DNA of 41,309 bases. It comes from a bacterium. Lineage in GTDB: Bacteria > Patescibacteriota > Minisyncoccia > Phycocordibacterales > UBA5272. Position 1 is the first letter of the stretch, and the number at the start of each line of letters is the position of its first letter. Under the pieces are notes generated by a model that was not told the DNA's origin, searched no databases, and saw only the letters and a list, made by a program, of their open reading frames with translations. The stretch is from positions 1 to 41,309 of the forward strand of contig JAYSVC010000030.1 in assembly GCA_043718735.1 (NCBI GenBank), given 5' to 3'. Position numbers and translations under genes: made by a program. Positions 9,764 to 33,969 of this stretch are shown in pieces.

Positions 9764-9792
9764 ATCCTGAAGTTAGTCCTTCGGGATTTTTT
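9764..9792 (+). terminator. Rho-independent terminator
   Basis: Stem ATCCTGAAG (9764-9772) / CTTCGGGAT (9779-9787) with one G-U pair, followed by a T-run. Confidence 0.7.
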
Positions 9793-9948
9793 ATGCAGAT
9801 TACTAACGACAACAATTCTATAAAAGTAAATATAGAAAAGAAAGAAGAAATACCAGATTTTGAAAATGTGGTCGGTCTTTTTAACCTACTTTTAAAAATT
9901 GATAAGCGTGTTAATCCGCATATTTATAAAAATAATAATACAAAATAA
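9793..9948 (+). CDS. Possible small ORF (51 aa), not in the ORF track
   Basis: ATG at 9793 and TAA at 9946-9948, ending 2 nt before the next ATG. No SD or family match. Confidence 0.3.
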   Translation: MQITNDNNSIKVNIEKKEEIPDFENVVGLFNLLLKIDKRVNPHIYKNNNTK

Positions 9949-9950
9949 AT

Positions 9951-10235
9951 ATGGAAAAGTTCTACACATTTATACCAGATTACTCAATAGGCGAAGGAGA
10001 AAAACTTCTCTTCCCTATAACATCAGAAGAAGTCTTAAAGAGATTAGAAGATAAGCTTATAAACAAATACTTATATAGAGTGCATATGGCTCTTTGTTGT
10101 GTTGATAATATAAAAAAGCACTTAATAAAAGCTATGGATGAGGCTTCACTTATGGCTTTAGATGATAATGAACCTATATGGAAAGAGATAGATAAAAAAT
10201 ATCAAGAAGAAATACTAAACTCCATGAAAATATGA
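9951..10235 (+). CDS. Hypothetical protein (94 aa)
   Basis: ATGA stop/start overlap with the downstream Rep gene. Confidence 0.5.
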   Translation: MEKFYTFIPDYSIGEGEKLLFPITSEEVLKRLEDKLINKYLYRVHMALCCVDNIKKHLIKAMDEASLMALDDNEPIWKEIDKKYQEEILNSMKI

Positions 10236-11359
10236 TAGATACCATCTGCCTACTTATACCAAAGGATAAATTAATTTTCTTAAATGAAAGTAATAGTCCT
10301 AGTTGGAACTTACAATCTCATACAGAACAGTATGATAGGTTTGTAAAAAACCCTACAAAACTTCAAAAAGAAAGTGGTTACTACTACCCTCGTCTTACTG
10401 GATACAAAAGAAAATATAATGATGAACGCAATGTAAAAATTGAGTTCTCAGTTCCAAAGATTATCTACAATAACAACTTAGACGAAGTTGAAGAAAATCA
10501 ATTTGACGAAATAGTGAACACTTTAAGAAATAGACTAAGAGAAATGGGTATTGTAGCAACTGAAAGTACTATCAAAAATGCAGGAGTAAGCTCTATGCAC
10601 TATTCTAAAAATATAATACTTCAAGATGGGTACACTGTTAATCAAGTAATATCAGAACTAAATAAGATAGACCTGCGAAAGACTTTTGATTTTGCAAAAG
10701 CAAGATTTATCAATGATGGTCAAAGTCTATATCTCCATACTACCTCACACGAGTTTACAATCTATGACAAGCTAGCTGATATGAAAAAGGATAAAAAGCG
10801 TGCAATAGATAAAGACCAAACAATGATACAAAGAACTCTATTTAATCAAATAGATAAGAAAAAAGTCTTGAGCGAAGTTTTAAGATTTGAAGTAAGACTT
10901 AGTAAGAAAGTAAAAATGGATAGCCTGCTTGAAAAACTTGGGTATTCTAAACATATGAACTTTGAACAATTATTTAAAAAAGAAATAAGTCAAAAAATAG
11001 TTACTCATTATTGGGAAACTTTAATCACAGAAAGAAACCTTGGACTATTCACTGTACAAAGTTCAGATAAAGACTTGCTTAGAAGTATATATAGAGCTAT
11101 ACCGAATATAAAACCAAATAGAGCCATATATCTAACGGGATTACTATTACTCGCAAAAGATGGTAACGGGATGCGAGAACTTCGGTCCATATTAGAAAAG
11201 AAATCAAATGATAGAACTTGGTTTCGTATCGCAAAAGATGTAAGAGAATTATCAAGCTCACTACCCTCTAACTTGGTCAGAGGCTGGGTAAAACAAATAG
11301 ATAACGCATTATTAACTTATAAACCATTAAGAATAAAAGATTATGAAGAAATTACCTAA
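10232..11359 (+). CDS. Rolling-circle replication initiator, phage/plasmid gene II/X (Phage_CRI)-like
   Basis: N-terminal MIDTICLLIPKD resembles f1 gpII MIDMLVLRLPF. LRFEVRLSKK resembles gpII VRFEARIKTR. Comparison is from memory. Confidence 0.5.
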   Translation: MIDTICLLIPKDKLIFLNESNSPSWNLQSHTEQYDRFVKNPTKLQKESGYYYPRLTGYKRKYNDERNVKIEFSVPKIIYNNNLDEVEENQFDEIVNTLRNRLREMGIVATESTIKNAGVSSMHYSKNIILQDGYTVNQVISELNKIDLRKTFDFAKARFINDGQSLYLHTTSHEFTIYDKLADMKKDKKRAIDKDQTMIQRTLFNQIDKKKVLSEVLRFEVRLSKKVKMDSLLEKLGYSKHMNFEQLFKKEISQKIVTHYWETLITERNLGLFTVQSSDKDLLRSIYRAIPNIKPNRAIYLTGLLLLAKDGNGMRELRSILEKKSNDRTWFRIAKDVRELSSSLPSNLVRGWVKQIDNALLTYKPLRIKDYEEIT

Positions 11360-11381
11360 GCAAAAAAGAAACGAAATAGAA

Positions 11382-11419
11382 TTACTAATTGAAAAACAAA
11401 TGAAAGTTTTTACTAATTG
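11382..11419 (+). repeat. Direct repeats TTACTAATTG x2, with further (A/G)TAATACA x3 and TGTAAAG x2 repeats up to 11503. Candidate iterons/origin.
   Basis: TTACTAATTG at 11382-11391 and 11410-11419. TAATACA at 11431, 11445 and 11497. TGTAAAG at 11478 and 11488. The region lies immediately downstream of rep. Confidence 0.45.
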
Positions 11420-11471
11420 TATTATAAAAATAATACAAGAAAAGTAATACACATTATAAACAAAAATACTG

Positions 11472-11500
11472 TTGCAATGTAAAGAATTGTAAAGTATAAT
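11472..11500 (+). promoter_or_regulatory. Promoter TTGCAA-N17-TATAAT for the xis-M-R-recombinase operon
   Basis: TTGCAA at 11472-11477 and TATAAT at 11495-11500. A small hairpin CCAAG/CTTGG follows in the leader. Confidence 0.6.
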
Positions 11501-11534
11501 ACAACCAAGTAAGACTTGGATAAATAATCTTATT

Positions 11535-11723
11535 ATGAACGAAAAAAATACAAAAGAGTTTTACAAAGCTGAAGAGCTTGCCGAAAAATTAGAGGTCAAC
11601 ATTATGACTATCTACCGCTACATAAAAGCTGGTCGTCTCAAGGCTTATAAAATCGGTAAAGAGTTCAGAATAGACAAAGACGAGTTTAACGCTTTTCTTA
11701 AAAGTGTAAGAACATATGAGTAA
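11535..11723 (+). CDS. Excisionase-family (MerR-like HTH_17) DNA-binding protein
   Basis: EELAEKLEVNIMTIYRYIKAGRLKAYKIGKEFRI matches the excisionase-type HTH pattern. Confidence 0.75.
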   Translation: MNEKNTKEFYKAEELAEKLEVNIMTIYRYIKAGRLKAYKIGKEFRIDKDEFNAFLKSVRTYE

Positions 11724-12651
11724 TAAAAAAAACATAACTTATTCCTCACCAACTTTATTCGCTGGAACGAGTAAGAAAATTAACCATACTACTACTTTCA
11801 TTGATTTATTTGCTGGAATAGGAGGCTTTCATATAGCATTTCGTAACGCTGGTGCTGAATGTGTTTTTGCGTCTGAGTGGGACGAACACGCAAGAAAAAC
11901 ATACATTGAAAACTTTTATAAAAATGACCCAGCTCTTTTTGACGACGGTAACTTTGTTGGAGACATAACAAAAGTTGATAAAGCCTCAATACCTGATTTT
12001 GATATTCTTACAGGAGGTTTTCCTTGTCAGCCGTTTAGCCAAGCAGGACACAAAAAAGGTTTTGAGGATACAAGAGGAACTTTATTTTTTGATATTGCAG
12101 AAATACTTAGGATAAAAAGACCAAAAGCATTTTTCATTGAGAATGTTAGAGGGTTACTTACTCACGACTTAGGAAGAACTTTTGAAACAATTAAAAATAC
12201 AATCACTGAGGATTTGGGCTACTCATTTCATTTTGGAATTGTAAAAGCATCTGACCACGGATTACCACAACATAGACCAAGACTTTTTATGGTTGGTTTC
12301 AGAGATAAAGATATTGTGTTTACACCCCCTATAAAAAGAGAATTGATGTATACAATGTCAGATGTCTTTGAGGGTCAGGCAGAGAAAAAAGTTGGATTTA
12401 CTTTGCGTGTTGGAGGTAAGGGTTCAAGCATTACTGACCGCAGAAATTGGGACAGTTATATGGTTGACGGAAAAGTTAGACGGATTACTCCAAAGGAGGG
12501 CAAGCGAATGCAAGGATTTCCTGACGATTTTGTTTTCCCTGTTACTGATAATCAAGCAATGAAACAACTTGGTAACAGTGTTGCGATTAGGGCTATCCAA
12601 GACTATGCACAACAAATAATTGATACTTTAAATAAACACTATGAAAAATAA
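11716..12651 (+). CDS. DNA (cytosine-5)-methyltransferase
   Basis: Motif I FAGIGGF, motif IV GGFPCQPFS, motif VI ENV, motif VIII QHRPRLF, motif X GNSV. Confidence 0.92.
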   Translation: MSNKKNITYSSPTLFAGTSKKINHTTTFIDLFAGIGGFHIAFRNAGAECVFASEWDEHARKTYIENFYKNDPALFDDGNFVGDITKVDKASIPDFDILTGGFPCQPFSQAGHKKGFEDTRGTLFFDIAEILRIKRPKAFFIENVRGLLTHDLGRTFETIKNTITEDLGYSFHFGIVKASDHGLPQHRPRLFMVGFRDKDIVFTPPIKRELMYTMSDVFEGQAEKKVGFTLRVGGKGSSITDRRNWDSYMVDGKVRRITPKEGKRMQGFPDDFVFPVTDNQAMKQLGNSVAIRAIQDYAQQIIDTLNKHYEK

Positions 12652-13717
12652 TAATCCAACAACAGGAAATACGGGAGAATGGAGTGAACTATACGCACTT
12701 GGATTTTTACTTGCTAATGGTGGTGTGTACGGTGCTGATAGTAAACAAAATAGAAAAGATGATTTATTCTATAAGGTTTTAAGAGTGATTTTCCAAGGTA
12801 AAGAAAACAAAGAACGAGTGTCTTATGACATCAATGATGAAAATGTTGTTATTTACTTTGATAATAAAAGGGTCTCATCAATAAAAATTAGTAAGATAAA
12901 AACGGTCCTGAATAAGTTTTTGCTTTCACTTACCTCAAAGAACGAAGGGCGAGCATACAAATTAGAGACTGGCGAGGAAATGATGAAGTTACTCAAAAAA
13001 GAAGTTATAAAAGCATCAAGTAAAGACAAGAAAGATTTGGACTTGGTGTTACTTGATATAAAAACAAAGATACAAACACCTGAGATTGGTTTTAGTATAA
13101 AGTCTCAAATAGGTAGTCCCTCAACACTCATCAACGCGTCAAAGGCTACTAACTTTATTTACGAGGTCTTAGATAAGAATGGTAAGACACCAAAGACTTT
13201 ACCTGACCTACACCCTAAGAATGTAAAAGATAATATATCTTTATTACTTGATAGTGGCTATCAAGTCGTTTTCTCTAAAATGGAAAGTGCTACTTTTCAT
13301 AAAAATCTTACTCTTATAGACAGTAAACTTCCTGAGTATGTTGCTAAGTTCTTACTCTCATTCTTTTCAAGAGGAGCAAACTCAATGAGCGACTTAGTGA
13401 ATAAAAGTTTTACTGGTGAGGCAGGAAAGCAACCGATATATAAGATAAAAGAGTTTTTGAGTATTATGGCTCTTGGTATGATGCCTAATACTGATTGGAA
13501 TGGAATACTAACAAGTCTTGGAGGAATGCTTTTAGTAAAGAAAGACGGTGATGTGCTTTGTTATTATCTCTATAACATAGAGGATTTTCAAACTTACCTT
13601 TTGGACAACACAAAACTTGATACACCCAGCACAACACGATACGGTATTGGAAAGATAATACAAGAGGACGGAAAGATGTATATAAAACTAAACCTACAAG
13701 TCAGGTTCATAAAATAA
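12641..13717 (+). CDS. Type II restriction endonuclease, HpaII-family-like
   Basis: N-terminal GEWSELYALGFLLANGGVYGAD resembles the remembered HpaII-family start. It overlaps the C5-MTase gene by 11 nt. Confidence 0.6.
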   Translation: MKNNNPTTGNTGEWSELYALGFLLANGGVYGADSKQNRKDDLFYKVLRVIFQGKENKERVSYDINDENVVIYFDNKRVSSIKISKIKTVLNKFLLSLTSKNEGRAYKLETGEEMMKLLKKEVIKASSKDKKDLDLVLLDIKTKIQTPEIGFSIKSQIGSPSTLINASKATNFIYEVLDKNGKTPKTLPDLHPKNVKDNISLLLDSGYQVVFSKMESATFHKNLTLIDSKLPEYVAKFLLSFFSRGANSMSDLVNKSFTGEAGKQPIYKIKEFLSIMALGMMPNTDWNGILTSLGGMLLVKKDGDVLCYYLYNIEDFQTYLLDNTKLDTPSTTRYGIGKIIQEDGKMYIKLNLQVRFIK

Positions 13718-13718
13718 T

Positions 13719-15242
13719 ATGAAATCTCTAATCATAGCTAGAGTATCAACAGAAGAGCAAAGAGAAGCGGGTAATTCATTGCCAGCTCAACAAACAAGAC
13801 TTCTTAACTATATAGAACGCTCATATAGTAAAACCGATAACTCTAAGCTTGAAATAGATAAAGAGTTTATATTTGATGAAAGTGCTTATAAAGAACACAG
13901 AAAAGAGTTTGGTAAAATACTTGAATACATAGATTTACAAAAAGAAAACATAGCAGTTTGTTGTGATAAGGTCGACAGACTTTCAAGAGATTTCTTAACA
14001 GGATTGCCAGGATTAGAAAGACTTAGAAGAGTTGGTAAGATTGAATTACATTTCCCTTCTGATAATTTAGTTTTACACGTAAACTCTCCTGCTACAGACT
14101 TATTTCATTACAACATAGCAGTCGCTTTGGCTCAATATTATTCTAATGCTATAAGTGATAATACAAAAAGAGCCTTAGAGCAAAAGAGAAGAAATGGTGA
14201 ATGGACTGGTCCTGTAAGACTAGGCTACTTGAATGTCCCACTTGATGAAGAAAATAGGACCAGGAAAACTATAATCATAGACCCTGAAAGAGGACACCTA
14301 GTCGCAGAGATGTTTGATAAATATGCTACTGGTAATTACTCACTTGAGACCATAAGACAAGAAATGGCTAGTAAAGGCCTTAAGACCCGCAAAGGAAATA
14401 GCGTGTCTAAAAGTGGTGTTGAAAATATTTTAAAAGATAGTTTTTACTGCGGTATAGCGATGTCTAAAAAATATGGGCCATATGCTCACATATATCCAAA
14501 ACTTATAGACAGACCGGCTTTTGATAAGTGTAAGGAAATAAGAGAAAGTAGAAAGAAAAAACCAAATAAAGAAAAATCAAAAGACTTCATTTTGAAAGGT
14601 ATTTTAACTTGTTCAAATTGTGGTTGTAACATAACAGCTGAACAAGTAAAGAAGCCAAATGGTAATATTTATAACTACTATTCTTGCACAAATGGTAAAG
14701 GAATATGCAAGAGAGTGTATGTATCAGAAAAGACATTGCTAGAGCCTGTATATGGCATTTTAGGGCGTTTAGAAGGCATATCACAAGAAGCTCAAGAAAG
14801 ACTTATAAAGGAATTAAGAAACTTGAACGAAACACAAGTTGAATATCATAAAAAGCAAGTAGAAAGAATACAGTCTGAATACAAAAAATACCAAACAAGA
14901 AAAAATAGTATTCTTGATATGTATGCGGACCAGAGTATTACTAAGTTAGATTATGACAAAAAGATGCAAGAGTATAATGACAAAATGCAACTTCTTGAAA
15001 TTGAGCTTTCTGAATATGGAAACGCAGACACAGAATATAAAATCGTTATATCTACAGTATTTTCTCTGGCAAGAAGAGCTAAAGAAATATTTGATAGTTC
15101 TGAAGTGAATGAAAAAAGACAGATTTTGAGTTACCTACTTCAGAACTCCACCTTAAATGAAAAAACGCCTTGCTATACAATGCGTTCTCCGTATAATCTG
15201 ATACTCGGACTACATAGTAACCCTAACTGGCTCCGTGAGTAG
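13719..15242 (+). CDS. Large serine recombinase (integrase)
   Basis: The resolvase catalytic N-terminus IIARVSTEEQ is followed by a recombinase domain. A zinc ribbon (CSNCGC...YYSCTNGKGIC) and a coiled-coil tail complete the protein. Confidence 0.9.
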   Translation: MKSLIIARVSTEEQREAGNSLPAQQTRLLNYIERSYSKTDNSKLEIDKEFIFDESAYKEHRKEFGKILEYIDLQKENIAVCCDKVDRLSRDFLTGLPGLERLRRVGKIELHFPSDNLVLHVNSPATDLFHYNIAVALAQYYSNAISDNTKRALEQKRRNGEWTGPVRLGYLNVPLDEENRTRKTIIIDPERGHLVAEMFDKYATGNYSLETIRQEMASKGLKTRKGNSVSKSGVENILKDSFYCGIAMSKKYGPYAHIYPKLIDRPAFDKCKEIRESRKKKPNKEKSKDFILKGILTCSNCGCNITAEQVKKPNGNIYNYYSCTNGKGICKRVYVSEKTLLEPVYGILGRLEGISQEAQERLIKELRNLNETQVEYHKKQVERIQSEYKKYQTRKNSILDMYADQSITKLDYDKKMQEYNDKMQLLEIELSEYGNADTEYKIVISTVFSLARRAKEIFDSSEVNEKRQILSYLLQNSTLNEKTPCYTMRSPYNLILGLHSNPNWLRE

Positions 15243-15302
15243 GGATCGAACCTACGACCAATTCCTTAACAGGGAACTGCTCTACCGCTGAGCTATCACG
15301 GA
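15228..15302 (-). tRNA. tRNA-Asn (GTT), CCA encoded
   Basis: Manual cloverleaf: acceptor TCCGTGA/TCACGGA, anticodon loop CTGTTAA, T-loop TTCGATC, 75 nt. Confidence 0.9.
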
Positions 15303-15420: not shown

Positions 15421-15464
15421 ATTAAAATCCCCAAGTTCTGGAGAGTTTAACTTTTATTTTTTTG

Positions 15465-15537
15465 TGCCCCCGGCAGGATTCGAACCTGCGACCATCTGCT
15501 TAAAAGGCAGTTGCTCTACCAACTGAGCTACAAGGGC
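15465..15537 (-). tRNA. tRNA-Lys (TTT), CCA not encoded
   Basis: Manual cloverleaf: acceptor GCCCTTG/CGGGGGC with two G-U pairs, anticodon loop CTTTTAA, T-loop TTCGAAT, 73 nt. Confidence 0.85.
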
Positions 15538-15745: not shown

Positions 15746-18700
15746 ATGAAAAATATAATCGACTTTACAAACTTTACTAAAAAGATTTTCGCTAGCACAC
15801 TACTAACTAGTATGCTCGCCACATTATTAATATCAGCAACATTTAGCTCTGCCTTAGCTGCTGGGGGTAATACTGTTACCCTAACGCCAGTAGCAGACAC
15901 GACTTATGGTTCTGCACCAATATCAATAACGGCAACACTTGATCCAGCTGTTGGGAACGTAACATTCACTTGGTCAGGAAGCTGTAATCTAACTGGAGCT
16001 GGAGAGACACGCAGTATAAGTATAACTGGAGCAGGAACATGTACTGTTACTGCTACTAAAAATAGTAATGCTTTTGCTACTGTTACTTTTAATATAGCAA
16101 AGAAGGACATTACTATGAGTACTGGAGATTTTGCCAGTCCTAGCAAAATCTATGACGGGACAACTGTTGCGAGCACAATACTGAATCCAACAGCTATCAC
16201 TTTTTCTGGAGTAATCAATGGCGATGATTCAGACGCGGCAAAGTTAAGTGTGAACACTTCTACCGGAGTTGCTACTCTATCTTCTAGAAATGTGACCACA
16301 ACAGCAGTGAACAATGTTACTTTTACAGGTTACACTCTGCAAGGAACAAAATCAGGTAATTACAATCTTACAAATCAACCATTACCAGAAACACAAATAG
16401 TAAACAAAAGAACTATTACTGTAACTCCTGCGGCAACTACAAAGGTTTACGACACTAACACATCATCTGTCACCTCTCCTGTGATTAGCCCTGCTGTTGC
16501 CACTGGCGATACTGGTGCTTTTACTCAAAGTTATGTAACTACAGACGTTGCTACAGCCAAAGAAATGATAGCAACAGGAAATGTATCAGATTCTAATGAT
16601 GGAAATAATTATACTGTGACTTTTGCAACTGCTAGCGTTGGAGTTATAACAAAAAAAGGACTAACTGTAACAGGATTAACAGCTTCTAACAAAGAGTATG
16701 ATTCAAATACTAGCACTACTGGTGCGGGAGTTCCTGCTCTTGTTGGCGTGATGGCTACTGATACTGTAACTCTTGGAGGTTCTGCAGTTATGAGCTTCTT
16801 AGATTCTGCAGTGGCTAATGGAAAGACAGTAAATGTAACTGGCTTAACTATTAGTGGTACTAGTTCTGATAACTACTCACTAACACAGCCAACATTAACT
16901 GCAAATATTACAGCCAAAAATATAACAATATCTGGTCTTAGTGTTGCGAATAAAGTATATGATGGACTAACAACAGCCATAATGAGTGGTGTAGCTACTC
17001 TTGTTGGTGTTATAAATACTGACTTGCTTAATGTCAGATTAGGGGGGAATCCTATCCTAGCTAACTTTGACACAAAGAATGCCAGCACTTCAAAACTAGT
17101 TAACATAACAGGATACACAGCGAGTGGAACAGCTGCAACTAATTACAATATTGTCACTCCTACAACTACTGCAAATATTACAAAGAAAACTTTAACTGTA
17201 ACTGTATCAGCTGTTAATAAAGTATATGATGGAAATACAAATGCTGTTGTGACTTTTTCTGATAACAGATTAATGGGAGATTTAATAACTATAACTGGAA
17301 CAGCTAATTTTTCTAGCAAAACTGTTGCTAATACAAAATTAGTAACTGTAACTGGATTAACTGTGACAGGCACTGATGCTGTAAATTATGTTTTAGCTAC
17401 TACCACATTAACAACAACTGCAAATATCACAAAGAAAGATATAACTACTAATGTCACTGCTTCTTCTAAAACCTATGACGCAAATACACTTGCTTCGTCT
17501 ACTGTATACTCATCAGGCATTGCTATAGGTGATTTTGTAAATTACACTTTTACAAGCTCTAACTTCTCAAACAAGAATGTAGGTATTGCAAAATTAGTAA
17601 CAGTGAATGGCATAGCTCTTGCAACTGCAACTGATACTCTTAATTATAATTTATTAAATGCTGTTGCAACCACAAATGCTAACATCACAGCTCGTGACCT
17701 GATTGTCTCTTCTGTGGGTGTTAATAAAGCATATGATGGCACTACTACTACAACCGTTAATTCTCTAACTTCTAATTCTTTACTTGGGGATGTAATTGGA
17801 GCCATATCTTCTACTACATCTAACTTTATAGACAAGAATGTAGGAGTAAATAAATTAGTAACTACAAATATACTAATAGGTGCTGGGGTTGATAATACCA
17901 ATTACAACTTACCACTTATCTCTACAACAACTGCAAATATCACAAAGAGAACATTAAATATGTTAAGTGCATCTGGCACTGATAAGGAGTACGATGGTAG
18001 CAGATACGGATTTGCTTCAATCACAGACAACAGAATAACTGGAGATGTGTTAGTCTATGCTTCTACAACCTCACTCTTTGACACAAAGAATGCTGGTGAT
18101 ACAAAAAGCATAACAGTAATCGGTATAACAATAAGTGACACTGATGCCATGAACTACACATTAGCGTCAACTAGTATTACGACTCCTCTGAATGTAAAAA
18201 TCACTAAAAAATCAGCAACTATATCGGCTGAAAACAAAACAAAAGCTTTTGGTGACGCTGACCCGATATTAACAGCAACTACTAGCATGATTATTGGAGA
18301 TACTCTAACAGGAACACTTGTAAGAACAGTAGGTGAAAATGTAGGTACATATACTATTAATCAAGGCACACTGAGTGCTGGCAATAATTACATAACTACT
18401 TTTAATGCTGGAACATTCACAATCACAGAGGCTGTGATTCTTACACCAGTTATTGTAGAAAACTTTGCTGGATTCCTTATCGCTTCTACTAACCTCAGTA
18501 GAAATGCTACGGTGAGAAATAGCGATGGATCATTACAGGTACTACAAGTATTAGGAGCAAGCAAGTTTAGATTCAACAAAAATCTTAAGCTTGGAATGAA
18601 GAATAATAATGACGTAAAAGAATTACAAAAAGCATTAAATGCTCTAGGATTATATGCGTCTACCAGCACAAATGGAAACTTTGATAATGATCTATTTAAA

Positions 18701-18787
18701 GCCGTTAAAGCTTATCAAAAGATTAACAAAGTGACTCCAGTATCTGGATATTTTGGACCAATCACACGTGGTGTTATAAACAAATAA
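15746..18787 (+). CDS. Large secreted surface protein: 8 YDG-type repeats + MBG domain + C-terminal peptidoglycan-binding domain
   Basis: Signal peptide present. Recurring K(V/I/E/T/A)YD(G/T/S/A)xT ... NY ... TANITKK units. MBG-like AFGDADP...GENVGTYTINQG...NY. PG_binding_1-like DVKELQKALNALGLY...AVKAYQK. Confidence 0.85.
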   Translation: MKNIIDFTNFTKKIFASTLLTSMLATLLISATFSSALAAGGNTVTLTPVADTTYGSAPISITATLDPAVGNVTFTWSGSCNLTGAGETRSISITGAGTCTVTATKNSNAFATVTFNIAKKDITMSTGDFASPSKIYDGTTVASTILNPTAITFSGVINGDDSDAAKLSVNTSTGVATLSSRNVTTTAVNNVTFTGYTLQGTKSGNYNLTNQPLPETQIVNKRTITVTPAATTKVYDTNTSSVTSPVISPAVATGDTGAFTQSYVTTDVATAKEMIATGNVSDSNDGNNYTVTFATASVGVITKKGLTVTGLTASNKEYDSNTSTTGAGVPALVGVMATDTVTLGGSAVMSFLDSAVANGKTVNVTGLTISGTSSDNYSLTQPTLTANITAKNITISGLSVANKVYDGLTTAIMSGVATLVGVINTDLLNVRLGGNPILANFDTKNASTSKLVNITGYTASGTAATNYNIVTPTTTANITKKTLTVTVSAVNKVYDGNTNAVVTFSDNRLMGDLITITGTANFSSKTVANTKLVTVTGLTVTGTDAVNYVLATTTLTTTANITKKDITTNVTASSKTYDANTLASSTVYSSGIAIGDFVNYTFTSSNFSNKNVGIAKLVTVNGIALATATDTLNYNLLNAVATTNANITARDLIVSSVGVNKAYDGTTTTTVNSLTSNSLLGDVIGAISSTTSNFIDKNVGVNKLVTTNILIGAGVDNTNYNLPLISTTTANITKRTLNMLSASGTDKEYDGSRYGFASITDNRITGDVLVYASTTSLFDTKNAGDTKSITVIGITISDTDAMNYTLASTSITTPLNVKITKKSATISAENKTKAFGDADPILTATTSMIIGDTLTGTLVRTVGENVGTYTINQGTLSAGNNYITTFNAGTFTITEAVILTPVIVENFAGFLIASTNLSRNATVRNSDGSLQVLQVLGASKFRFNKNLKLGMKNNNDVKELQKALNALGLYASTSTNGNFDNDLFKAVKAYQKINKVTPVSGYFGPITRGVINK
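16090..18200 (+). repeat. In-frame tandem array of ~230-nt coding repeats (YDG domains)
   Basis: DNA-level recurrence of ACTGCAAATAT(T/C)ACAAAGA(A/G)A and AAAGTATATGATGG. These are protein repeats, not CRISPR. Confidence 0.8.
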
Positions 18788-18847: not shown

Positions 18848-19960
18848 ATGATAGGAAACTCCAGATCTCCAAAAAAAATAAGACATCATCTCAAGCATTT
18901 TTTTATTCCACATGAGCACAATGATTTTAAACCACATATATTCCGAGAAGTGTCTGTGTCTGTTATGCTCGCCACTACTCTATTTTTATTTGGACTCTCT
19001 ATTGGTAGTGCATACATAATACAAGGAACAGTAATAGGTCGTGAGATAATCAGTAAAGTCTTAATAGACCTGACCAATGAAAATAGAATCTCTAATAATC
19101 TAACCCCACTAAATGAAAACAATAAGTTAACCTTAGCTGCACTACTAAAAGCAAAAGACATGTTAGGTCGCCAATATTTTGCTCATGAGTCACCGACAGG
19201 TGCAACGCCTTGGAGCTTCATAGAGCAGGCAAATTATGAATATACCTATGCTGGTGAAAACCTAGCCATAAATCATATTGATAATAATCAGACGGATAAT
19301 GCCTGGATGAACTCACCACTACATAGGAAAAATATTTTAGATAGTAATTTTGAAGAGATAGGTATCTCGGCCTACTCTGGAGACTATCAAAATAGAAACA
19401 CCATCTTTGTAGTGCAAATGTTCGGCACACCTGCAAAAAATTATGACTCTACAATCTTAGCTACAGAAAATGTAAAAATAGAGAATGATACACAAGAAAT
19501 AAATACTAACACAAATACACCAAAAGAACCGGTAAAAAAAGTTTTAGCAAGAGAAACAAAAAAAGTTTTAGCAAAAAATCCAGAATCAAAAATAGAATCA
19601 ATAGCAACCAAAACTACTCCCACCCTAGAAAATAGCTCGTCTTCTGTACTTAATAATTCTACCAATACACTATTAGCCCCCACTGCTACTACTGAAGTTT
19701 TAAAAGTAGAAGGAACTAGTAATAAAAATTATTCCAATATCTATGAAAGGTTAATATATAATGGATCCAACTATGTTCAAAATATGTTACAGATTTTATT
19801 TGTAATTATTTTCATAGCCACCCTAACTGATATATTAGTAGAAATAAAAAAACAGCACATGCGTCATATTGCTTATGCTGTCTTATTACTTATTATCTTA
19901 ATCACCCTGATGTATTTGAATAAGAATTATTTTGAATTAAACTTTAAAGTTTTATTCTAA
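18848..19960 (+). CDS. CAP (SCP/PR1, YkwD-like) domain membrane protein
   Basis: YFAHESPTG...YAGENLA...WMNSPLHRKNIL...IGIS is a CAP signature. TM segments at both the N- and C-terminus. Confidence 0.8.
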   Translation: MIGNSRSPKKIRHHLKHFFIPHEHNDFKPHIFREVSVSVMLATTLFLFGLSIGSAYIIQGTVIGREIISKVLIDLTNENRISNNLTPLNENNKLTLAALLKAKDMLGRQYFAHESPTGATPWSFIEQANYEYTYAGENLAINHIDNNQTDNAWMNSPLHRKNILDSNFEEIGISAYSGDYQNRNTIFVVQMFGTPAKNYDSTILATENVKIENDTQEINTNTNTPKEPVKKVLARETKKVLAKNPESKIESIATKTTPTLENSSSSVLNNSTNTLLAPTATTEVLKVEGTSNKNYSNIYERLIYNGSNYVQNMLQILFVIIFIATLTDILVEIKKQHMRHIAYAVLLLIILITLMYLNKNYFELNFKVLF

Positions 19961-19963
19961 CTA

Positions 19964-20575
19964 CTATTCTAGTATACCATCTAGATTAACATCGTAAAGC
20001 ATAGCCTCACTTACTAATCTGTAATTTACTATTTCACTTGCTGTAAACCATATATTAACCTCACGGTCATACGCCTCCACGCCGTCCTCTGGATCTGTGC
20101 AGTGTATCAGATTTCTCATGCCACGTGACCCATCTGAATCACAAAGAAAATAAGAGTCTATGGCATAATCACCACGTATAGTTCCAGTGTCAGCACTTGC
20201 TGGCTCAGTACTGCCAACTAATCTCTTAACTACGGCACCTGAGTTATTACCCTCAATAACCATGGCAACAACTGGACCACAAGTCATATATCCAACTACA
20301 GCACGTATAATATCCTTACCGTACTCTACTGCTTCCTTCTCTACTGGTAGACCTAATTTCTCGCGATTAGCGATAAGGCCTGTACCCTTTTTAAGATACC
20401 AAGCATCATCTTTTTGATAATGATCCCAGCATTGTGTCTCAGTTGGCACTATCATTTTCATAGCCGCTATCTTAAGACCGATACGCTCAAATCTTTTAGT
20501 TACTTCACCCACAAGGCCACGTTGTACTGCGTCAGGCTTTAGTATTACAAATGTTTTTTCTTTTTTTGGATGCAT
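19964..20575 (-). CDS. ndk: Nucleoside-diphosphate kinase, long form (203 aa)
   Basis: KTFVILKPDAVQRGLVGEV, GPVVAMVIEG, GTIRGDYA and NLIHCTD (catalytic His), with about 35 extra residues inserted and a C-terminal extension. Confidence 0.8.
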   Translation of the reverse strand: MHPKKEKTFVILKPDAVQRGLVGEVTKRFERIGLKIAAMKMIVPTETQCWDHYQKDDAWYLKKGTGLIANREKLGLPVEKEAVEYGKDIIRAVVGYMTCGPVVAMVIEGNNSGAVVKRLVGSTEPASADTGTIRGDYAIDSYFLCDSDGSRGMRNLIHCTDPEDGVEAYDREVNIWFTASEIVNYRLVSEAMLYDVNLDGILE

Positions 20576-28308: not shown

Positions 28309-30333
28309 TCAACCAAAAACTTTTTTCTCTTCTATTTTTGGACATCTTTCGTTAAAAAGTTTCCAAAGCTTCCAGATTGTAACAGGCACATAAATAATGG
28401 CCCCGCCTATCATGGAAAAAATTATTACAAAAAATCTTAAAGCTTTTTCTAAAAGATATTCTAGCTTTGCTAAAAATATATTCTCTTTAGATACTTTCAC
28501 TTCTTCTGCTTTATCTATTTTTACTGGTTTTATAACCCTATCCAAAATAATGTTACCATACTCAGTTTTTATATACGTACCGTACCCATTGGCTTGCCAT
28601 ACTTCTGCCATCAATTCAATATCAATTCCTTCAGCATACATCATCTGAAACTCAGGTCCTGAGTGCCATAATATCCTACCGACGGTAGTGTCGTACGCTT
28701 CAGCCAATGAATTAATCACTTCTACATTTTTTGCATTTAACAAAAAGTGTTGAAGTTCTTTTACATATTCATAGTCATAATCCATAAATCTACGTAAAAG
28801 ATCATGTGTCTCATAACTGAACACACCCATCAAGCTCCTGCTGTCTGAAAAAATATTTTGATTCTTAGCAAGTGAACTTGAAAATAATCTGTTTAACTTT
28901 CTTTTTGTCGCTCCACTATTCATGTCAGCGATATACTCTTCTACCTGCTTTTTGTATGGGTCACAATTGCCAGAATAAAAGATAATGCCCAAAAACAAAA
29001 CAAAAGAGAACAAGGCAATAGTCAAATCTAAGTTAAGAGGCAAATCAAAACCTTTTACTGGAACGAACCATAATAAAGATACAAATATCACAGCAAGGAA
29101 ATACATGAATACCTTCATCTTTTTGAAAAGTTCATAACGCTTTTCTAAAGACTCTTCTTTTTTACTGTCTACCACTAATTGCATAGCGATAAAAATAAAC
29201 ACTCCGATAACTAATCCTAAAATAGGAAAGAGGGCATTTTTATATATAGCAACTAACACCTCCAGAAACTTTTCATGCCTTGTCGCATCAAGATAAATCA
29301 TAACTGGTGTTAAGGCAGAAAATAATTTACTTAATACTGGCAACCTGAAGAGACTCTTTTTTTCATGCGCGTAAGTTATAATACCCCACACTGTAAAGAG
29401 GAATAAAGTGAGTGAGTTGATTCCAATAATCAAAACAATTAAACCAACTAGTCCTGCAGCCAGAAAAGAAGCACCAATAACCTCAATTATTTTTTTCCAA
29501 AACTCTTCGTCGTAGCTGGTATTCTTGAACATATGTAACCAACCCCAAGCAATTAATATACATGGAGTGACAGCACCAAGCACTGAAAATAACCAAGCTT
29601 GCCAGCCATAAGAAAACACAGAAGCAACGGCAAAGAGTGGTGATAGTATCAAAAAGAAAAACCAGCCAAACAAAGTAATCCAGAACCCAGGACAAATGTA
29701 AGGTGACAATTTTACTTTTTCTTTTCCCCATAATGCATTTTTACGCATCAGATGATAAAAAATAAAATAAATACCTAGCTCTTCCTGATTAACTTCAAAG
29801 CCTTTCTCTTTGTCATTACGTAGTAGATCACGCATCACACTTTTGTTTACAGGTTCAGAATGTTCCTCATTTGCGTAAGTTGTAAATCCAAAACCAAAAC
29901 CAAAAAAATCATGGGCTATTGCTTTTGATTCTTCGTATTTTGATTTTTTATTTTCAACTGGAGTCTTTACAAAAAACTCTACGCATTTCCAGAACTTGTT
30001 ACGCATACCCTGTTTGTAGCAAGGCATTATGTTTCTATCATTACCAAGCAAATACATATTAGCATGTGCCAGCAAGGTGACTATCTGGTCACTTGTTATT
30101 CTTTTTAAGAATAACTCAAAACCTTGAAAGTCAGTATTACTCCAACGTAACCAGCGACGAAAGATATCAGCTGGCAACAAATGTGCTGCCGCAACTACGC
30201 GATAGCGCATGTCACAACGATTGTCTTCCAGAATATTCTTAAGAACTTTTTCTTCATTTTTAACAATGCCATTTCTAAGGCGCTGCCAAAAATTAAGATA
30301 GTTTTTATAATCTCTTACAATGAACGTATCCAT
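28309..30333 (-). CDS. Large polytopic membrane protein (674 aa), unknown function
   Basis: About 200-aa soluble N-terminus, then many TM helices and a soluble segment before the last TM. AAAGGAG SD. Confidence 0.7.
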   Translation of the reverse strand: MDTFIVRDYKNYLNFWQRLRNGIVKNEEKVLKNILEDNRCDMRYRVVAAAHLLPADIFRRWLRWSNTDFQGFELFLKRITSDQIVTLLAHANMYLLGNDRNIMPCYKQGMRNKFWKCVEFFVKTPVENKKSKYEESKAIAHDFFGFGFGFTTYANEEHSEPVNKSVMRDLLRNDKEKGFEVNQEELGIYFIFYHLMRKNALWGKEKVKLSPYICPGFWITLFGWFFFLILSPLFAVASVFSYGWQAWLFSVLGAVTPCILIAWGWLHMFKNTSYDEEFWKKIIEVIGASFLAAGLVGLIVLIIGINSLTLFLFTVWGIITYAHEKKSLFRLPVLSKLFSALTPVMIYLDATRHEKFLEVLVAIYKNALFPILGLVIGVFIFIAMQLVVDSKKEESLEKRYELFKKMKVFMYFLAVIFVSLLWFVPVKGFDLPLNLDLTIALFSFVLFLGIIFYSGNCDPYKKQVEEYIADMNSGATKRKLNRLFSSSLAKNQNIFSDSRSLMGVFSYETHDLLRRFMDYDYEYVKELQHFLLNAKNVEVINSLAEAYDTTVGRILWHSGPEFQMMYAEGIDIELMAEVWQANGYGTYIKTEYGNIILDRVIKPVKIDKAEEVKVSKENIFLAKLEYLLEKALRFFVIIFSMIGGAIIYVPVTIWKLWKLFNERCPKIEEKKVFG

Positions 30334-30444: not shown

Positions 30445-33400
30445 CTACGCTTTTTTAACTGCAAAAACATCACCAATAGTCACTTCTAATATCTTCATTT
30501 CTTTTTTGTATACATCATCTATTAACTCTACTCTACTGCTCTCAATAACTAGAAATATATTATCAGAAGAAACTAGCCCGAGCTCTTTTCTTCTGTCTTT
30601 TACCTCTCGACTTAATTCTCTTTGTTTACCTTCTCTTATTAGTTCTGGACTTAAAGTAAAATCTAAAATATTTTCTTCAATTTCCTCACTGATGATTATC
30701 TCTTTTACATTTAATTCTTCTCTTATTATCGCTTCATATTTTTCTAGAATATTTTTAGGAGTATTTTTATTCAGGGTTAACCTTGATAATGGTTGACGCA
30801 CTGGTGTATTATTTTTCTGCCTCATCATAAGCACACTGGTTACTATCTCTCTCACTTGCATCATTTCTTCTAAGATATTTTTTTCATTCCCGTCCAACTC
30901 TTTTTTCTCTGGATATTTTTGAAGGTGCACACTATCATTTGCTGTTACTGTATTTATTTTATTTACATTTTGATATACACGCTCAGCGAGGAACGGCATA
31001 ACAGGAGCTATAACTTTTGCGAATTCTACAAAAATATATTTCATAGTTTCTAATGCTTCTAATTTATCTTCGTCACCCTTCAGTCTGTCACGACTGCGAC
31101 GCAAATACCAAGTAGACAGATCATCTACGAACCTATCTACCTCACTCACTGCGACATCGAGCTTATAATTTTCATAACCATCTACACTTTTATTTACAAC
31201 TTCTTGAAGTCTAATGAGTATCCACTGATCTAAAATATTTTTAGACTTTGTATCTGCTTTTATATTTGCCATATTTTCAGAATACATATTATAAAAGTCT
31301 ATTACATTTTCTAATCTTTGTATATTTTTCTTATACACCTCTTCTGGTAATGCATCCGTAAACTCTACACCTTCACCACGCATAGCAGGACTGTTAACTA
31401 GTGCAAAGCGTATGGCATCTGCTCCGAACTTTTCTACTAGCACCATCGGATCTGTGTAATTCTTAAGACTTTTTGATAATTTCTCACCACCGGCAGCTAA
31501 TATGTGACCATTCACTATTACATTTTCAAATGGCACCTTATCAAAAAGACCGACACCAAGATTAATGAGCGAATAGAACCAGCCACGTGTCTGGTCTACA
31601 CCCTCAGCTATAAAGTTAGCCGGGAAGTTTTTGTTAAAAGTTTCTACGTTTTCAAAGGGATAATGCATGCTAGCATAAGGCATGGACCCCGACTCGAACC
31701 AGCAATCAAAAACATCACCGATAATTTTCATGTCTCCACCCTTACCATCTTTTAATATAACTCTGTCTATGTATGGACGATGAAGATTAATTAATCCATT
31801 CTCATCACGAGAAAGTGGCCTCCATATTGCCTCTCTATAATCTCCAGTCTGCACAAAAGTGTCATGATCTCTGTGGTGAGGCTTATCAGCATCTCCGATT
31901 ATCTGACTGTCTGACCTGGCTAGGCCATTGGCTATTACTGCCTTCACTAATCCCAAGTGAGTCACCATTAAAATATTTTTATCTTTAAAATTATTCTCAG
32001 TCTCCATTACTAAGTTACCAACTCTTATCTTCATTTCGTTATAACTCTCTAATCCATATTCATTTGAACTAAGATCATTTGCATGATTCTCAAAAACTAT
32101 TTTATGAGTGTCATCAAAACATTTACCATCTAATGTTCCCAGTCCATGCTCACGTAATCTGTCATCATAAATTATCTTACTTTTATCATAACCTATTACT
32201 TCTGCTACCAAGCCCGCAGTCTCTCTCGTTCTTAGGAATGGGGAACAGAATATAACATCTATATTCTTACTTTTTAATTTTTCTGCCGATTCTCTTACTT
32301 GATTTTTCCCATTTTCAGTTAAGTGATTTTCTGGGTCGCCACTCGAGTCATATTTTTCTTGACCATGAACATTGTGCATCGCCTCACCGTGACGCATTAC
32401 TAGGTATTCGTTATTTGATTTTTGTTTACTCGCCAAGTCTTCTAATGAGCCAGCTACAAATACTTCACTACCGTCTGCATTTTTCCATATTGGTAATGGC
32501 GCACCCCAATATCTTTTTCTTGATACTGCCCATTCACGAGCACCCTCTAACCACTTGCCAAATCGTCCATCACGCATATGCGAAGGGACCCAAGAAGTTT
32601 TCAGATTTTCAGATATTAACTTCTCTTTTATTTTAGGGACATCTACGAACCATGAAGAAGTGGCATAATTAAGTAGAGGTGTCTTACATCTCCAACATAA
32701 CGGGTATGAGTGTACTATTTTTTCTTTTGAAAATAATTTTCCGCTGTGAGCTAATAGCTTTACTATTTCTATATCTGTAGACATGCTGTCATCTTTTTTC
32801 TTAACCACAAGATTTTTTAGTGCTGGTAAATCAATTTCCACTTCGTTTACGAAGTGACCATTCATCAACACATGCTTTATTACTGGTATCTTATTTTCTT
32901 TGGCTAGCTCCATGTCCTCAGTTCCGAATGCTGGCGCTTCGTGAGCGATACCAGTACCGCTGTCGTCAGTAATAAAGTCTGCGTGCCACACTTTCCAGAT
33001 ATTCTCACTATTTTCTAATTTATTCAAATACTCTTCATTGTTAAAACTATTGAATACTGGCTCATAACTTTCCCCTATGTATTCATTTATGTCGACACTT
33101 TCTACGACCTCAAAAACGCCTTTCTTTTCAAAGACTTTTTGTATTAATTTAGTAGCCACTATAAAAAATTTGTTCTCATTTTTAACTATACTATATTCTA
33201 AGTTTTTATTAATAGCGAGAGCTGTGTTACCTGGTAATGTCCACGGTGTAGTGGTCCAGGCTAATATATACAAATCATTACTGTTATATTTTTTATTTTT
33301 TAATTTGAATTCTGCTATGACTGTCATGTCAGTAATGTCATGATACTCGAGACCAACTTCTGACTGAGCGAGTGGTGTCTCACATCTTGGACATATATGC

Positions 33401-33969
33401 ATTATCTTATACCCTTCATAGGCTAACTTTTTTTCATATAAATTTTTCCATGCCCACCATACGCTCTCAGTATAAGTCCAATCCATAGTCTTATATGCAC
33501 TCTTCATATCAACGAAGCGCCCGAGACGCGGAACTATTTGTTTCCATTCTGCATCGTAACGCATAACACTGTCAGCACAAGCGTCAGTGAATTTACCAAC
33601 ACCTAACTCCTCTATTTCTTTTTTACTATTTAGATTTAATTCTTTTTCTATAAGGTTTTCTATAGGTAGTCCGTGGCAATCCCAACCCCAGACGCGACGC
33701 ACGCTGTGACCCTGCATTGTCTTGTATCTTGGTATTACATCTTTTATGGTGCCAGCAAGTATATGTCCGTGATGTGGTAATCCAGTTGCAAATGGAGGCC
33801 CATCGTAGAATGAAAAAGATTTTATCTCATTACTGCCTAGTGGTAATCCAGCAGGAGACTCAACAGATTTTTCAAAGATTTTATTTTCTTTCCAAAAATT
33901 AAGTGTTTCTAATTCTTTTTCATTTATTGTTTTTTTAATATTTAAATTATTTTGATTTGTGTTTTGCAT
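30445..33969 (-). CDS. ileS: Isoleucine--tRNA ligase with an inserted histidine-phosphatase domain
   Basis: HIGH motif PHHGHILAG and KMSKS motif KLSKSLKN. Also WTTTPWTLPGN, FDCWFESGSMPY and DQTRGWFYS. The insert at about residues 516-725 carries RHG/His_Phos motifs. Confidence 0.93.
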   Translation of the reverse strand: MQNTNQNNLNIKKTINEKELETLNFWKENKIFEKSVESPAGLPLGSNEIKSFSFYDGPPFATGLPHHGHILAGTIKDVIPRYKTMQGHSVRRVWGWDCHGLPIENLIEKELNLNSKKEIEELGVGKFTDACADSVMRYDAEWKQIVPRLGRFVDMKSAYKTMDWTYTESVWWAWKNLYEKKLAYEGYKIMHICPRCETPLAQSEVGLEYHDITDMTVIAEFKLKNKKYNSNDLYILAWTTTPWTLPGNTALAINKNLEYSIVKNENKFFIVATKLIQKVFEKKGVFEVVESVDINEYIGESYEPVFNSFNNEEYLNKLENSENIWKVWHADFITDDSGTGIAHEAPAFGTEDMELAKENKIPVIKHVLMNGHFVNEVEIDLPALKNLVVKKKDDSMSTDIEIVKLLAHSGKLFSKEKIVHSYPLCWRCKTPLLNYATSSWFVDVPKIKEKLISENLKTSWVPSHMRDGRFGKWLEGAREWAVSRKRYWGAPLPIWKNADGSEVFVAGSLEDLASKQKSNNEYLVMRHGEAMHNVHGQEKYDSSGDPENHLTENGKNQVRESAEKLKSKNIDVIFCSPFLRTRETAGLVAEVIGYDKSKIIYDDRLREHGLGTLDGKCFDDTHKIVFENHANDLSSNEYGLESYNEMKIRVGNLVMETENNFKDKNILMVTHLGLVKAVIANGLARSDSQIIGDADKPHHRDHDTFVQTGDYREAIWRPLSRDENGLINLHRPYIDRVILKDGKGGDMKIIGDVFDCWFESGSMPYASMHYPFENVETFNKNFPANFIAEGVDQTRGWFYSLINLGVGLFDKVPFENVIVNGHILAAGGEKLSKSLKNYTDPMVLVEKFGADAIRFALVNSPAMRGEGVEFTDALPEEVYKKNIQRLENVIDFYNMYSENMANIKADTKSKNILDQWILIRLQEVVNKSVDGYENYKLDVAVSEVDRFVDDLSTWYLRRSRDRLKGDEDKLEALETMKYIFVEFAKVIAPVMPFLAERVYQNVNKINTVTANDSVHLQKYPEKKELDGNEKNILEEMMQVREIVTSVLMMRQKNNTPVRQPLSRLTLNKNTPKNILEKYEAIIREELNVKEIIISEEIEENILDFTLSPELIREGKQRELSREVKDRRKELGLVSSDNIFLVIESSRVELIDDVYKKEMKILEVTIGDVFAVKKA

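Follow-up and report, generated by a model that had tools for sequence, protein, structure and literature searches.

The 41,309-nt stretch of DNA analysed here (forward strand 1-41,309 of contig JAYSVC010000030.1, assembly GCA_043718735.1; hereafter the window) encodes an isoleucyl-tRNA synthetase (IleRS) with a second enzyme inside its catalytic core. A complete branch-1 histidine phosphatase is nested, as a true in-frame insertion, in the CP3 subdomain (CP, connective peptide) of the Rossmann fold. An earlier note, made from the sequence alone, had claimed a complete RHG-type phosphatase domain at 31795-32424 in the IleRS core; this interval is exactly residues 516-725 of the protein, and Pfam His_Phos_1 matches there (E = 1.4e-28). 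Taken singly, host and guest are ordinary, a type-2 IleRS and a branch-1 phosphatase; it is their nested combination that is new. The architecture is conserved across hundreds of species and is therefore a matter of biology, not a single-genome oddity. As to function, we lean towards an autonomous phosphatase tethered to the synthetase.

The host synthetase and the insertion point

The gene and its parts, with the short motifs located by a motif check, are as follows.

30445-33969, minus strand: whole ileS gene, type-2 (eukaryote-like) IleRS with nested phosphatase; a single uninterrupted open reading frame (ORF) of 1174 aa plus stop
32452-33969, minus strand: IleRS N-terminal part (aa 1-506), comprising the first Rossmann half, CP core, CP1 editing domain, CP2, CP2-3 linker and first beta-hairpin of CP3; aligns to 8C8U 3-467
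33763-33774, minus strand: HHGH (HIGH-type), aa 66-69
33238-33255, minus strand: TTTPWT of the CP1 editing domain, aa 239-244
32503-32541, minus strand: CP2-3 linker AREWAVSRKRYWG
31798-32451, minus strand: inserted segment, aa 507-724, in place of a CP3 loop of 16-35 aa; gap in the phmmer alignment to 8C8U, at column 486 of the core hidden Markov model (HMM)
30445-31797, minus strand: IleRS C-terminal part (aa 725-1174 plus stop), comprising the remaining CP3, second Rossmann half, anticodon-binding domain and type-2 C-terminal domains; aligns to 8C8U 484-871
31765-31788, minus strand: NLHRPYID of CP3
31675-31716, minus strand: DVFDCWFESGSMPY, aa 752-765, second Rossmann half
31573-31596, minus strand: DQTRGWFY, aa 792-799
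31468-31482, minus strand: KLSKS (KMSKS-type), aa 830-834

The best NCBIfam match of the protein is TIGR00392 (ileS), which scores 805.9 bits (cut-off 621.4) in two stretches flanking the insert, and the type-2 MupA/MupB models come next. Pfam places tRNA-synt_1 on both sides of the insert, Anticodon_1 at aa 914-1062 and a weak DUF5915 match at the C-terminus. The best PDB sequence matches are type-2 (IleRS2) and eukaryotic enzymes (8C8U/7D5C, E ~1e-198), with the IleRS1 structures 8C9E/1FFY weaker (E ~1e-85). IleRS2 also ranked first in a fold search with an AlphaFold model of the whole protein, which was predicted from alignment A2 (18 rows) with a local confidence score (pLDDT) of 86.8, a predicted template-modelling score (pTM) of 0.79 and template-modelling (TM) scores to 8C8U of 0.72/0.81. 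HHGH, KLSKS, TTTPWT and further IleRS motifs are invariant or nearly so in 112 homologues. The motifs of its synthetic site (HHGH, KLSKS) and of its editing site are intact, and the protein is the organism's housekeeping type-2 IleRS. The earlier note had described the IleRS motifs on both sides of the insert as intact and in frame, and so they are (HHGH 66-69, KLSKS 830-834, DVFDCWFESGSMPY 752-765 and DQTRGWFY 792-799).

Query residues 8-506 align to residues 3-467 of 8C8U (Priestia megaterium IleRS2) and residues 725-1116 to 484-871; therefore, about 218 residues stand where the solved enzyme has 16. The spacing from WGxPxPxW to LH(R/K)xx(I/V)D is 26-35 aa in relatives without the insert (47-53 in a few) versus 197-243 aa in relatives with it, in agreement with the ~25 residues that the earlier note had given as normal between these segments. 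Domain names are those of PMC7191050 and PMC7955072, in which CP3 extends over residues 473-534 of Candida IleRS and 459-526 of yeast IleRS. In the alignment, query residue 513 corresponds to about yeast residue 489, which lies inside the published CP3 limits, and the insertion point is therefore CP3, directly after the CP2-3 linker. In yeast IleRS, this linker lines the pocket for the tRNA CCA end (PMC7955072). Alignment to IleRS orthologues, proposed earlier as a check, thus defines the insertion point as a CP3 loop that is short in insert-less IleRS2.

The identical protein, with the same neighbours, is found on one NCBI contig of a metagenome-assembled genome and in two independent Logan assemblies from different sequencing runs. 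The insert has a GC content of 0.370 and a third-codon-position GC content of 0.298, versus 0.354 and 0.289 for the rest of the gene. Misassembly, which the earlier note wished to see excluded, and a frameshift are ruled out by the continuous ORF, by the identical protein on three independently assembled contigs and by the uniform composition. An ordinary CP3 connective peptide is ruled out by the Pfam match and by the short CP3 loop of insert-less IleRS2. An intein or a recent mobile insertion was likewise rejected: there is no Hint/intein or homing-endonuclease Pfam match, the composition is native and the insert is present in relatives down to ~35 per cent identity. The earlier reading of a true domain insertion, as opposed to a fusion boundary or a frameshift, is borne out by flanks that align unbroken to IleRS2 structures, by the Pfam match and by the modelled phosphatase fold.

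The phosphatase domain

The domain and its key residues map to the following positions.

31921-32403, minus strand: histidine phosphatase superfamily branch 1 domain, Pfam PF00300, aa 523-683; E = 1.4e-28, 100.4 bits versus a gathering threshold of 21.7
32386-32394, minus strand: RHG, with R526, H527 (predicted phospho-accepting nucleophile) and G528; R kept in 300 and H in 302 of 304 embedded domains
32371-32373, minus strand: N533, phosphate-pocket Asn of RHGExxxN; kept in 288 of 304
32230-32232, minus strand: R580, second phosphate-binding Arg, SPxxR motif (CSPFLRTRETA); kept in 302 of 304
32149-32151, minus strand: E607, predicted general acid/base, within RLREHGLGTLDG; kept in 299 of 304, with three E-to-D changes
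32023-32025, minus strand: R649 of the GGE(T/S)xxxxxxR motif; kept in 299 of 304
31957-31959, minus strand: H671, second catalytic His, T-H-G/L-G motif (ILMVTHLGLV); kept in 303 of 304

All of the hallmark motifs named in the earlier note are present, namely RHG at 526-528, LTENGKNQV, CSPFLRTRETA, RLREHGLGTLDG and ILMVTHLGLV. The GGE(T/S)xxxxxxR motif that contains R649 is typical of PhoE/GpmB/CobC-like phosphatases. The conservation of catalytic residues, on which the earlier claim depended, is complete in the alignments: R526, H527, N533, R580, E607, R649 and H671, together with G554 and S576, do not vary in any of 121 close homologues or of 81 GTDB sequences. In 80 GTDB sequences, identity to the query averages 33 per cent for the insert versus 59 per cent for the IleRS body. 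The pentad R526/H527/R580/E607/H671 (R-H-R-E-H) is kept in 295 of the 304 embedded domains (97 per cent), which come from 298 proteins; the others comprise the three E-to-D changes, some alignment gaps and a small number of genuinely degenerate copies. Because the catalytic residues are conserved despite an insert identity of ~33 per cent, phosphatase activity is probably under selection. These residues are under strong purifying selection, and the domain is apparently active.

In the AlphaFold models, pLDDT is mostly 84-97 over the phosphatase domain and 83.9 for the segment model of CP3 plus insert. A Foldseek search with the modelled domain returned 4IJ6, 4IJ5, 1H2E and 1EBB at the top (E 1e-11 to 5e-10; TMt 0.69-0.77), the best structural matches being 4IJ5/4IJ6, the PspA phosphoserine phosphatase of Hydrogenobacter (root-mean-square deviation 2.4-2.7 Å). 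The PDB profile search was led by PspA (4IJ5), PhoE (1EBB/1H2E) and CobC (6NRU), and a glucosyl-3-phosphoglycerate phosphatase and a riboflavin-pathway phosphatase are also near solved relatives by profile or fold. The closest solved relatives are thus small-molecule phosphatases, not mutases. True structures of cofactor-dependent phosphoglycerate mutases (dPGMs) match the insert weakly and over its N-terminal half only in the PDB profile search.

No NCBIfam functional model reaches its cut-off for the insert. The best one, dPGM_arch (NF038349), scores 95.9 bits versus 225 (E = 2.7e-27). Among mutase models, GpmB (46.3 versus 261) and PRK01295 (31.2 versus 316) fall short, and pgm_1 is not among the listed matches; the phosphatase-subfamily models CobC (76.7 versus 162.9), PspA (49.5 versus 350), PRK15004 (44.8 versus 250) and SixA (42.3 versus 74.5) also remain below their cut-offs. 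With the Pfam threshold exceeded and all of these cut-offs missed, it is therefore membership in the superfamily that is established, and not the functional subfamily. dPGMs have the substrate-binding motifs ERHYG and HGNS(L)R, neither of which was found in the family consensus or in the window insert. The consensus reads LRE(F/Y/H)(N/D)(M/L)G and THGGPxRM; the corresponding sequences of the window insert are LREHGLG and THLGLV. The nested domain is acidic, with a median isoelectric point of 5.8 and a net charge of -9 in the query.

Distribution across Patescibacteria

A survey of relatives, suggested in the earlier note, found the insertion to be clade-wide. PF00300 is present on all 120 of the best 120 clusters at 90 per cent identity (52-100 per cent identical to the query, 1094-1227 aa long), the few named ones being labelled as Parcubacteria or Pacebacteria IleRS or as 'class I tRNA ligase family protein'. 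Of the best 150 representatives at 50 per cent identity, 98 have one or more embedded domains, down to ~35 per cent identity to the query. Relatives are encoded by at least 594 stretches of GTDB species genomes, and the 80 species representatives retained from these, on which the GTDB figures rest, all span the whole insert. By their records, these 80 belong to Paceibacterota, Parcubacteria, Nomura-, Kaiser-, Adler-, Taylor-, Vogel-, Yonath- and Wolfebacteria. The architecture is the norm, not a rarity, in a large Patescibacteria IleRS clade and occurs in hundreds of species. Within that clade (Paceibacteria/Parcubacteria), the insertion is typical and of ancient date.

Sites, copies and losses in relatives

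We mapped 350 IleRS sequences on a core HMM built from insert-less relatives and found phosphatase domains at three sites. Site A, the CP3 site of the window, is occupied in 285 sequences. Site B, the loop between CWFESGSMPY..HYPF and FPADFIAEGxDQTRGWF, is occupied in eight (e.g. P0156, P0158, P0220, P0227, P0209 and P0228), and site C, the junction to the anticodon-binding domain, in seven (P0148, P0209, P0214, P0216, P0218, P0228 and P0237). Six proteins have two phosphatase copies, and in P0140 and P0266 the copies are in tandem. A (P)KNx(Y/F) signature directly before the RHG strand is common to the domains of all three sites, which are ~35-45 per cent identical to each other whatever the site. 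Copies inside one protein are not mutual nearest neighbours in a domain-level analysis, which rules out recent tandem duplication. The simplest reading is that a single domain family was probably duplicated or relocated within ileS long ago; repeated capture is a conceivable alternative origin.

On a rough neighbour-joining tree of the IleRS core, insert-less sequences are interspersed among insert-bearing ones. The clearest example, P0121, is 67 per cent identical to the query, lies among insert-bearing sequences and has the domain cleanly deleted in frame, with the remnant SLQDLI..DKSGD..QNI..IPKDETGNINLHKPYID. Its gene is intact (1010 aa, locus L081:3863-6895) on a 16-kb contig, known from one contig of one sample, and there is no His_Phos gene within 8 kb of it. 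P0121 is evidence for a putative secondary loss of the phosphatase. Since it keeps an intact IleRS, at least one lineage can do without the domain for IleRS function.

About 8 per cent of close homologues (P0025, P0029, P0030, P0039, P0043-45, P0048, P0049, P0051 and L066) have a short insert of ~171 aa versus ~210, without the cap between E607 and GGE...R and without part of the C-terminal helices. The pentad is kept, and the active site of this variant may be more open. In P0145, the domain is degenerate (RHG is changed to LHG and the second His is lost), and P0236, P0159 and P0234 have single catalytic substitutions (E to N in P0234); these four may be decaying copies.

Other guest domains occur in IleRS relatives of 35-50 per cent identity, mostly beside the histidine phosphatase. 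GNAT domains are nested in P0224 and P0234 and C-terminal in P0268; NUDIX domains lie in the editing-domain region of P0185, P0196 and P0236; P0214 has an alpha/beta serine hydrolase (Ser_hydrolase/Abhydrolase_6); and P0174 has a CPT/Zeta/AAA_18/AAA_33-like P-loop kinase paired with the phosphatase. An IS200-like Y1 transposase domain (REP-associated tyrosine transposase, RAYT) is nested in frame in the editing-domain region, at core-HMM column 293, in P0243 (208 aa from aa 334) and P0268 (aa 326-472; NF047646, 81.3 bits versus a cut-off of 80), a hint that ileS can acquire mobile-element ORFs permanently and in frame. Altogether, the IleRS of Patescibacteria gives the impression of a general scaffold for nested domains. 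The three naturally permissive insertion sites and the nested set (histidine phosphatase, GNAT, NUDIX, hydrolase, kinase and RAYT) should be useful for the study of multidomain synthetase evolution and for protein engineering.

Possible functions of the nested phosphatase

By a modest margin over even chances, we favour an autonomous phosphomonoesterase of the PhoE/PspA/CobC type that is attached to the housekeeping IleRS but takes no part in its charging chemistry. Following the standard chemistry of the superfamily, H527 would attack a phosphomonoester to form a phospho-histidine intermediate, R526, R580, N533 and H671 would hold the phosphate, and E607 would protonate the leaving group and then activate water. 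The substrate would most probably be a small molecule. The phosphatase would be co-expressed one to one with IleRS and physically attached to it, with no role in aminoacylation or editing, and selection would maintain the activity and the tether to IleRS rather than any exact placement with respect to the tRNA or the adenylate site. Autonomy is suggested because three distant sites serve equally, clean loss is possible, the domain is acidic and its closest characterized relatives are small-molecule enzymes.

Four considerations weigh on the other side. The presence of one domain family at three sites, duplicated at times and, among the aaRS genes seen, in IleRS only, argues for a specific functional link to IleRS; this recurrence is not explained by co-expression alone, and more specific explanations are therefore kept below. 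CP3 starts right after the linker of the CCA pocket (PMC7955072), which makes a tRNA-directed role sterically conceivable for domains at site A. The high pLDDT of the linkers in the model suggests a rigid attachment, not a floppy one. Finally, the acidic net charge speaks weakly against RNA substrates.

A broader explanation treats IleRS as a modular platform of cis counter-measures. The phosphatase would clear phosphates from the tRNA CCA end (added by toxSAS-type enzymes) or from the synthetase's own KMSKS loop (added by HipA-type kinases), and the NUDIX, GNAT, serine-hydrolase and P-loop-kinase guests would belong to the same toolkit. We regard this as rather unlikely; if true, it would represent a new class of synthetase-embedded repair or immunity function, and a domain that acts on tRNA ends or on the synthetase would add a new chapter to the toxin/anti-toxin biology of translation.

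Healing of tRNA 3' ends is a narrower proposal. The domain would clear CCA ends that may be blocked by toxSAS-type pyrophosphokinases or left by ribotoxins, taking off a 3'-phosphate or, once pyrophosphate has been cleaved, the last phosphate, and thereby yield chargeable tRNA(Ile) directly at the synthetase. Toxins that pyrophosphorylate the CCA end of tRNA and block aminoacylation are documented (10.1101/2021.04.30.441581, PMC11559606, PMC9712102). The CP2-3 linker, directly ahead of CP3, is part of the CCA-end pocket, and the NUDIX pyrophosphohydrolase or P-loop kinase nested in some relatives would fit multi-step end repair. However, the domain is acidic, its closest solved relatives are small-molecule phosphatases, and three distant sites, including the anticodon-domain junction, are hard to square with reaching A76. 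Moreover, only IleRS carries the domain, whereas such toxins hit many tRNAs. We know of no histidine phosphatase that acts on RNA 3' ends, and we consider this role unlikely.

To the same degree unlikely, in our judgement, is that the nested domain is a hidden metabolic enzyme, either the cofactor-dependent phosphoglycerate mutase of the cell or a different phosphatase missing from central metabolism, e.g. phosphoserine phosphatase. Phosphoglycerate mutase has been reported missing in some Parcubacteria clades, the best NCBIfam family is the archaeal-type dPGM (NF038349, E = 2.7e-27), the top solved relative is a PspA-type phosphoserine phosphatase, and strong catalytic conservation in tiny genomes fits an essential metabolic role. 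Nevertheless, no equivalog cut-off is reached (dPGM_arch, 95.9 versus 225), LRE(F/Y/H)(N/D)xG and THGG/THLG stand in place of the dPGM motifs ERHYG and HGNS, and true dPGM structures match the N-terminal half only, weakly. Nor does this explanation give any reason for a location in IleRS at three sites.

Quite improbable is a protein phosphatase that acts in cis by removing inhibitory phosphorylation from IleRS (e.g. from the KMSKS serine) or from another translation factor. Protein phosphatases do exist among the branch-1 enzymes (SixA, Sts and PGAM5), and HipA/HipT kinases phosphorylate GltX/TrpS in a comparable way. SixA is among the weaker NCBIfam matches (42 bits), the cap-less ~171-aa variant implies a more open active site, and a substrate in cis could be served from any of several attachment sites. 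Yet the SixA cut-off is missed, no kinase or toxin partner is found in the conserved neighbourhood, and most members keep the cap typical of small-molecule enzymes.

We give slightly less credence still to in-cis immunity, in which the phosphatase, like the GNAT, serine-hydrolase and NUDIX guests, would inactivate adenylate-mimicking or phosphorylated IleRS inhibitors. MccE, MccF and HinT represent enzyme classes that neutralize antibiotics mimicking aminoacyl-adenylates; GNAT, alpha/beta serine hydrolase, NUDIX and CPT/Zeta-like kinase domains are nested in the IleRS of relatives; and type-2 IleRS is the mupirocin-resistant form. The case is entirely circumstantial, however: no known IleRS inhibitor is a phosphomonoester, no biosynthetic or resistance genes surround ileS, and the diversity of guests, including the RAYT transposase, fits a permissive scaffold equally well.

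A catalytically irrelevant spacer or structural module is very improbable, despite a few degenerate members (P0145, P0236, P0159 and P0234) and the complete loss of the domain in one close relative (hence its dispensability for IleRS in some lineages), given that 97 per cent of 304 domains keep all five catalytic residues at ~33 per cent overall identity; its variant, an assembly or annotation artefact, is effectively refuted by the identical protein on three assemblies and the architecture in hundreds of species.

Comparison with known systems

Solved type-2 IleRS (8C8U/8C8V, Thermus thermophilus 1ILE, and the yeast/Candida enzymes 7D5C, 8WND and 6LDK) have the same full domain set in the same order as the window IleRS, with the same HIGH/KMSKS-type motifs; TM scores for the modelled fold are 0.7-0.8 and the sequence match is E ~1e-198. 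They differ in CP3, where the window enzyme has ~200 extra residues that form a second enzyme and the solved ones a short loop or a Zn knuckle. The CP3 Cys ligands are absent from the window enzyme.

The insert shares its modelled fold (TMt ~0.7) and its pentad with the stand-alone enzymes PhoE, PspA (iPSP), CobC and GpgP (1H2E, 4IJ5, 6NRU and 4PZ9), as well as the motifs RHGExxxN, SPxxR, LxE...G and GGE...R. It differs from them in being only 20-25 per cent identical, in being nested and not free-standing, and in conserved features of its own, namely the N-terminal signature (P)KNx(Y/F) and the exit linker PRD(E/A)TG. Their usual dimeric state should not be assumed for it.

NF040702 (ileS_w_GNAT) is a curated precedent for an IleRS with an unrelated enzyme domain, and the relatives P0224, P0234 and P0268 also have a GNAT domain. 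The window IleRS is unlike this family, scoring 295.5 bits versus a cut-off of 1999 and lacking any acetyltransferase Pfam match. P0234 and P0268 are also far under the cut-off and so represent different lineages or architectures.

Branch-1 phosphatases are joined to other enzymes in Rv2228c-type RNase H/acid phosphatase (NF005567) and in PFK-2/FBPase-2 as well. The phosphatase half of NF005567 is the second-best NCBIfam match of the insert (85 bits, below the cut-off), and FBPase-2 domains are among the PDB profile matches. Both, however, are end-to-end fusions, whereas the window domain is nested within the catalytic fold of its partner. In this respect it resembles the CP1 editing domain of class Ia aminoacyl-tRNA synthetases (aaRSs) and the INS domain of ProRS, which are likewise hydrolytic domains nested in an aaRS catalytic fold. 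CP1 and INS act on the misactivated or mischarged products of their own enzyme and are universal in their families, whereas the histidine phosphatase shares neither their fold nor their chemistry and is lineage-specific.

That no characterized aaRS has an embedded histidine phosphatase, as the earlier note had stated, is consistent with targeted open-access full-text searches, which returned no description of a phosphatase-bearing synthetase and, for IleRS with NUDIX and GNAT domains, nothing relevant. A 2026 survey of 96,219 IleRS domain architectures contains no mention of phosphatase, the Candidate Phyla Radiation (CPR) or Patescibacteria. PF00300 on these IleRS is already recorded by automated pipelines. 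As far as the searchable literature goes, this would be the first description of an active-looking, unrelated enzyme nested in a class I aaRS catalytic fold besides the editing domain. A phosphatase hidden inside ileS will be missed by CPR metabolic reconstructions, and reported gaps, e.g. phosphoglycerate mutase in Parcubacteria, may need re-examination; a phosphoglycerate mutase-family domain embedded in IleRS would escape surveys such as PMC7304191.

Genomic context

In 60-65 of 80 related loci, ileS lies in an argS-ileS-recO-like arrangement (argS in 60 of 80, a recO-like gene of 191 aa in 65 of 80), and in 59 of 80 a 625-aa unknown protein is encoded two genes downstream of ileS, after the recO-like gene; metG or glyS is often nearby. 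Given this housekeeping cluster, the IleRS with the nested domain is therefore the housekeeping IleRS, and the context lends indirect support to its predicted Ile-tRNA(Ile) formation and Val editing. Neighbouring ArgRS, MetRS and GlyRS in the 80 loci have no histidine phosphatase domain, and the insertion is specific to IleRS among the synthetase genes seen.

The argS-ileS-recO-like arrangement is broken in the window genome, where the neighbours of ileS encode a membrane protein without Pfam match, Bac_transf, DUF192 and RecA. The first of these, a 674-aa multi-pass membrane protein (28309-30333, minus strand) directly downstream of ileS, is adjacent to it on three assemblies of the genome and is distinct from the 625-aa unknown protein.

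The neighbourhood gave no clue to the function of the phosphatase, the conserved genes of relatives being housekeeping ones only. Apart from ileS, the window has no His_Phos gene, and a single distant one occurs in 81 loci. The PADLOC defence libraries have no match for the insert, Rfam finds three tRNAs only in the window, and promoter-like and terminator-like sites, sought as signs of an internal promoter, occur at chance level.

Other features of the window

Positions 5998-15242 form a probable integrated defence/mobile island adjoining tRNA-Asn (15228-15302) and tRNA-Lys (15464-15537). The island contains a Schlafen/AlbA_2 ATPase, an AbiV HEPN protein, two Pfam-less ORFs, a C5 cytosine methylase with an HpaII-type restriction endonuclease, and a large serine recombinase. 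Beyond the tRNA genes, 15746-18787 (plus strand) encodes a protein of 1013 aa in which seven YDG repeats are combined with an MBG_2 and a peptidoglycan-binding domain. The next gene, at 18848-19960 (plus strand), encodes a member of the CAP (cysteine-rich secretory) family, and the two products probably act at the cell surface or in host interaction. A nucleoside diphosphate kinase of 203 aa is encoded at 19964-20575 (minus strand). Its Pfam NDK match is split in two, with the best stretch starting from profile position 52, and so the kinase has an unusual N-terminal part or an insertion.

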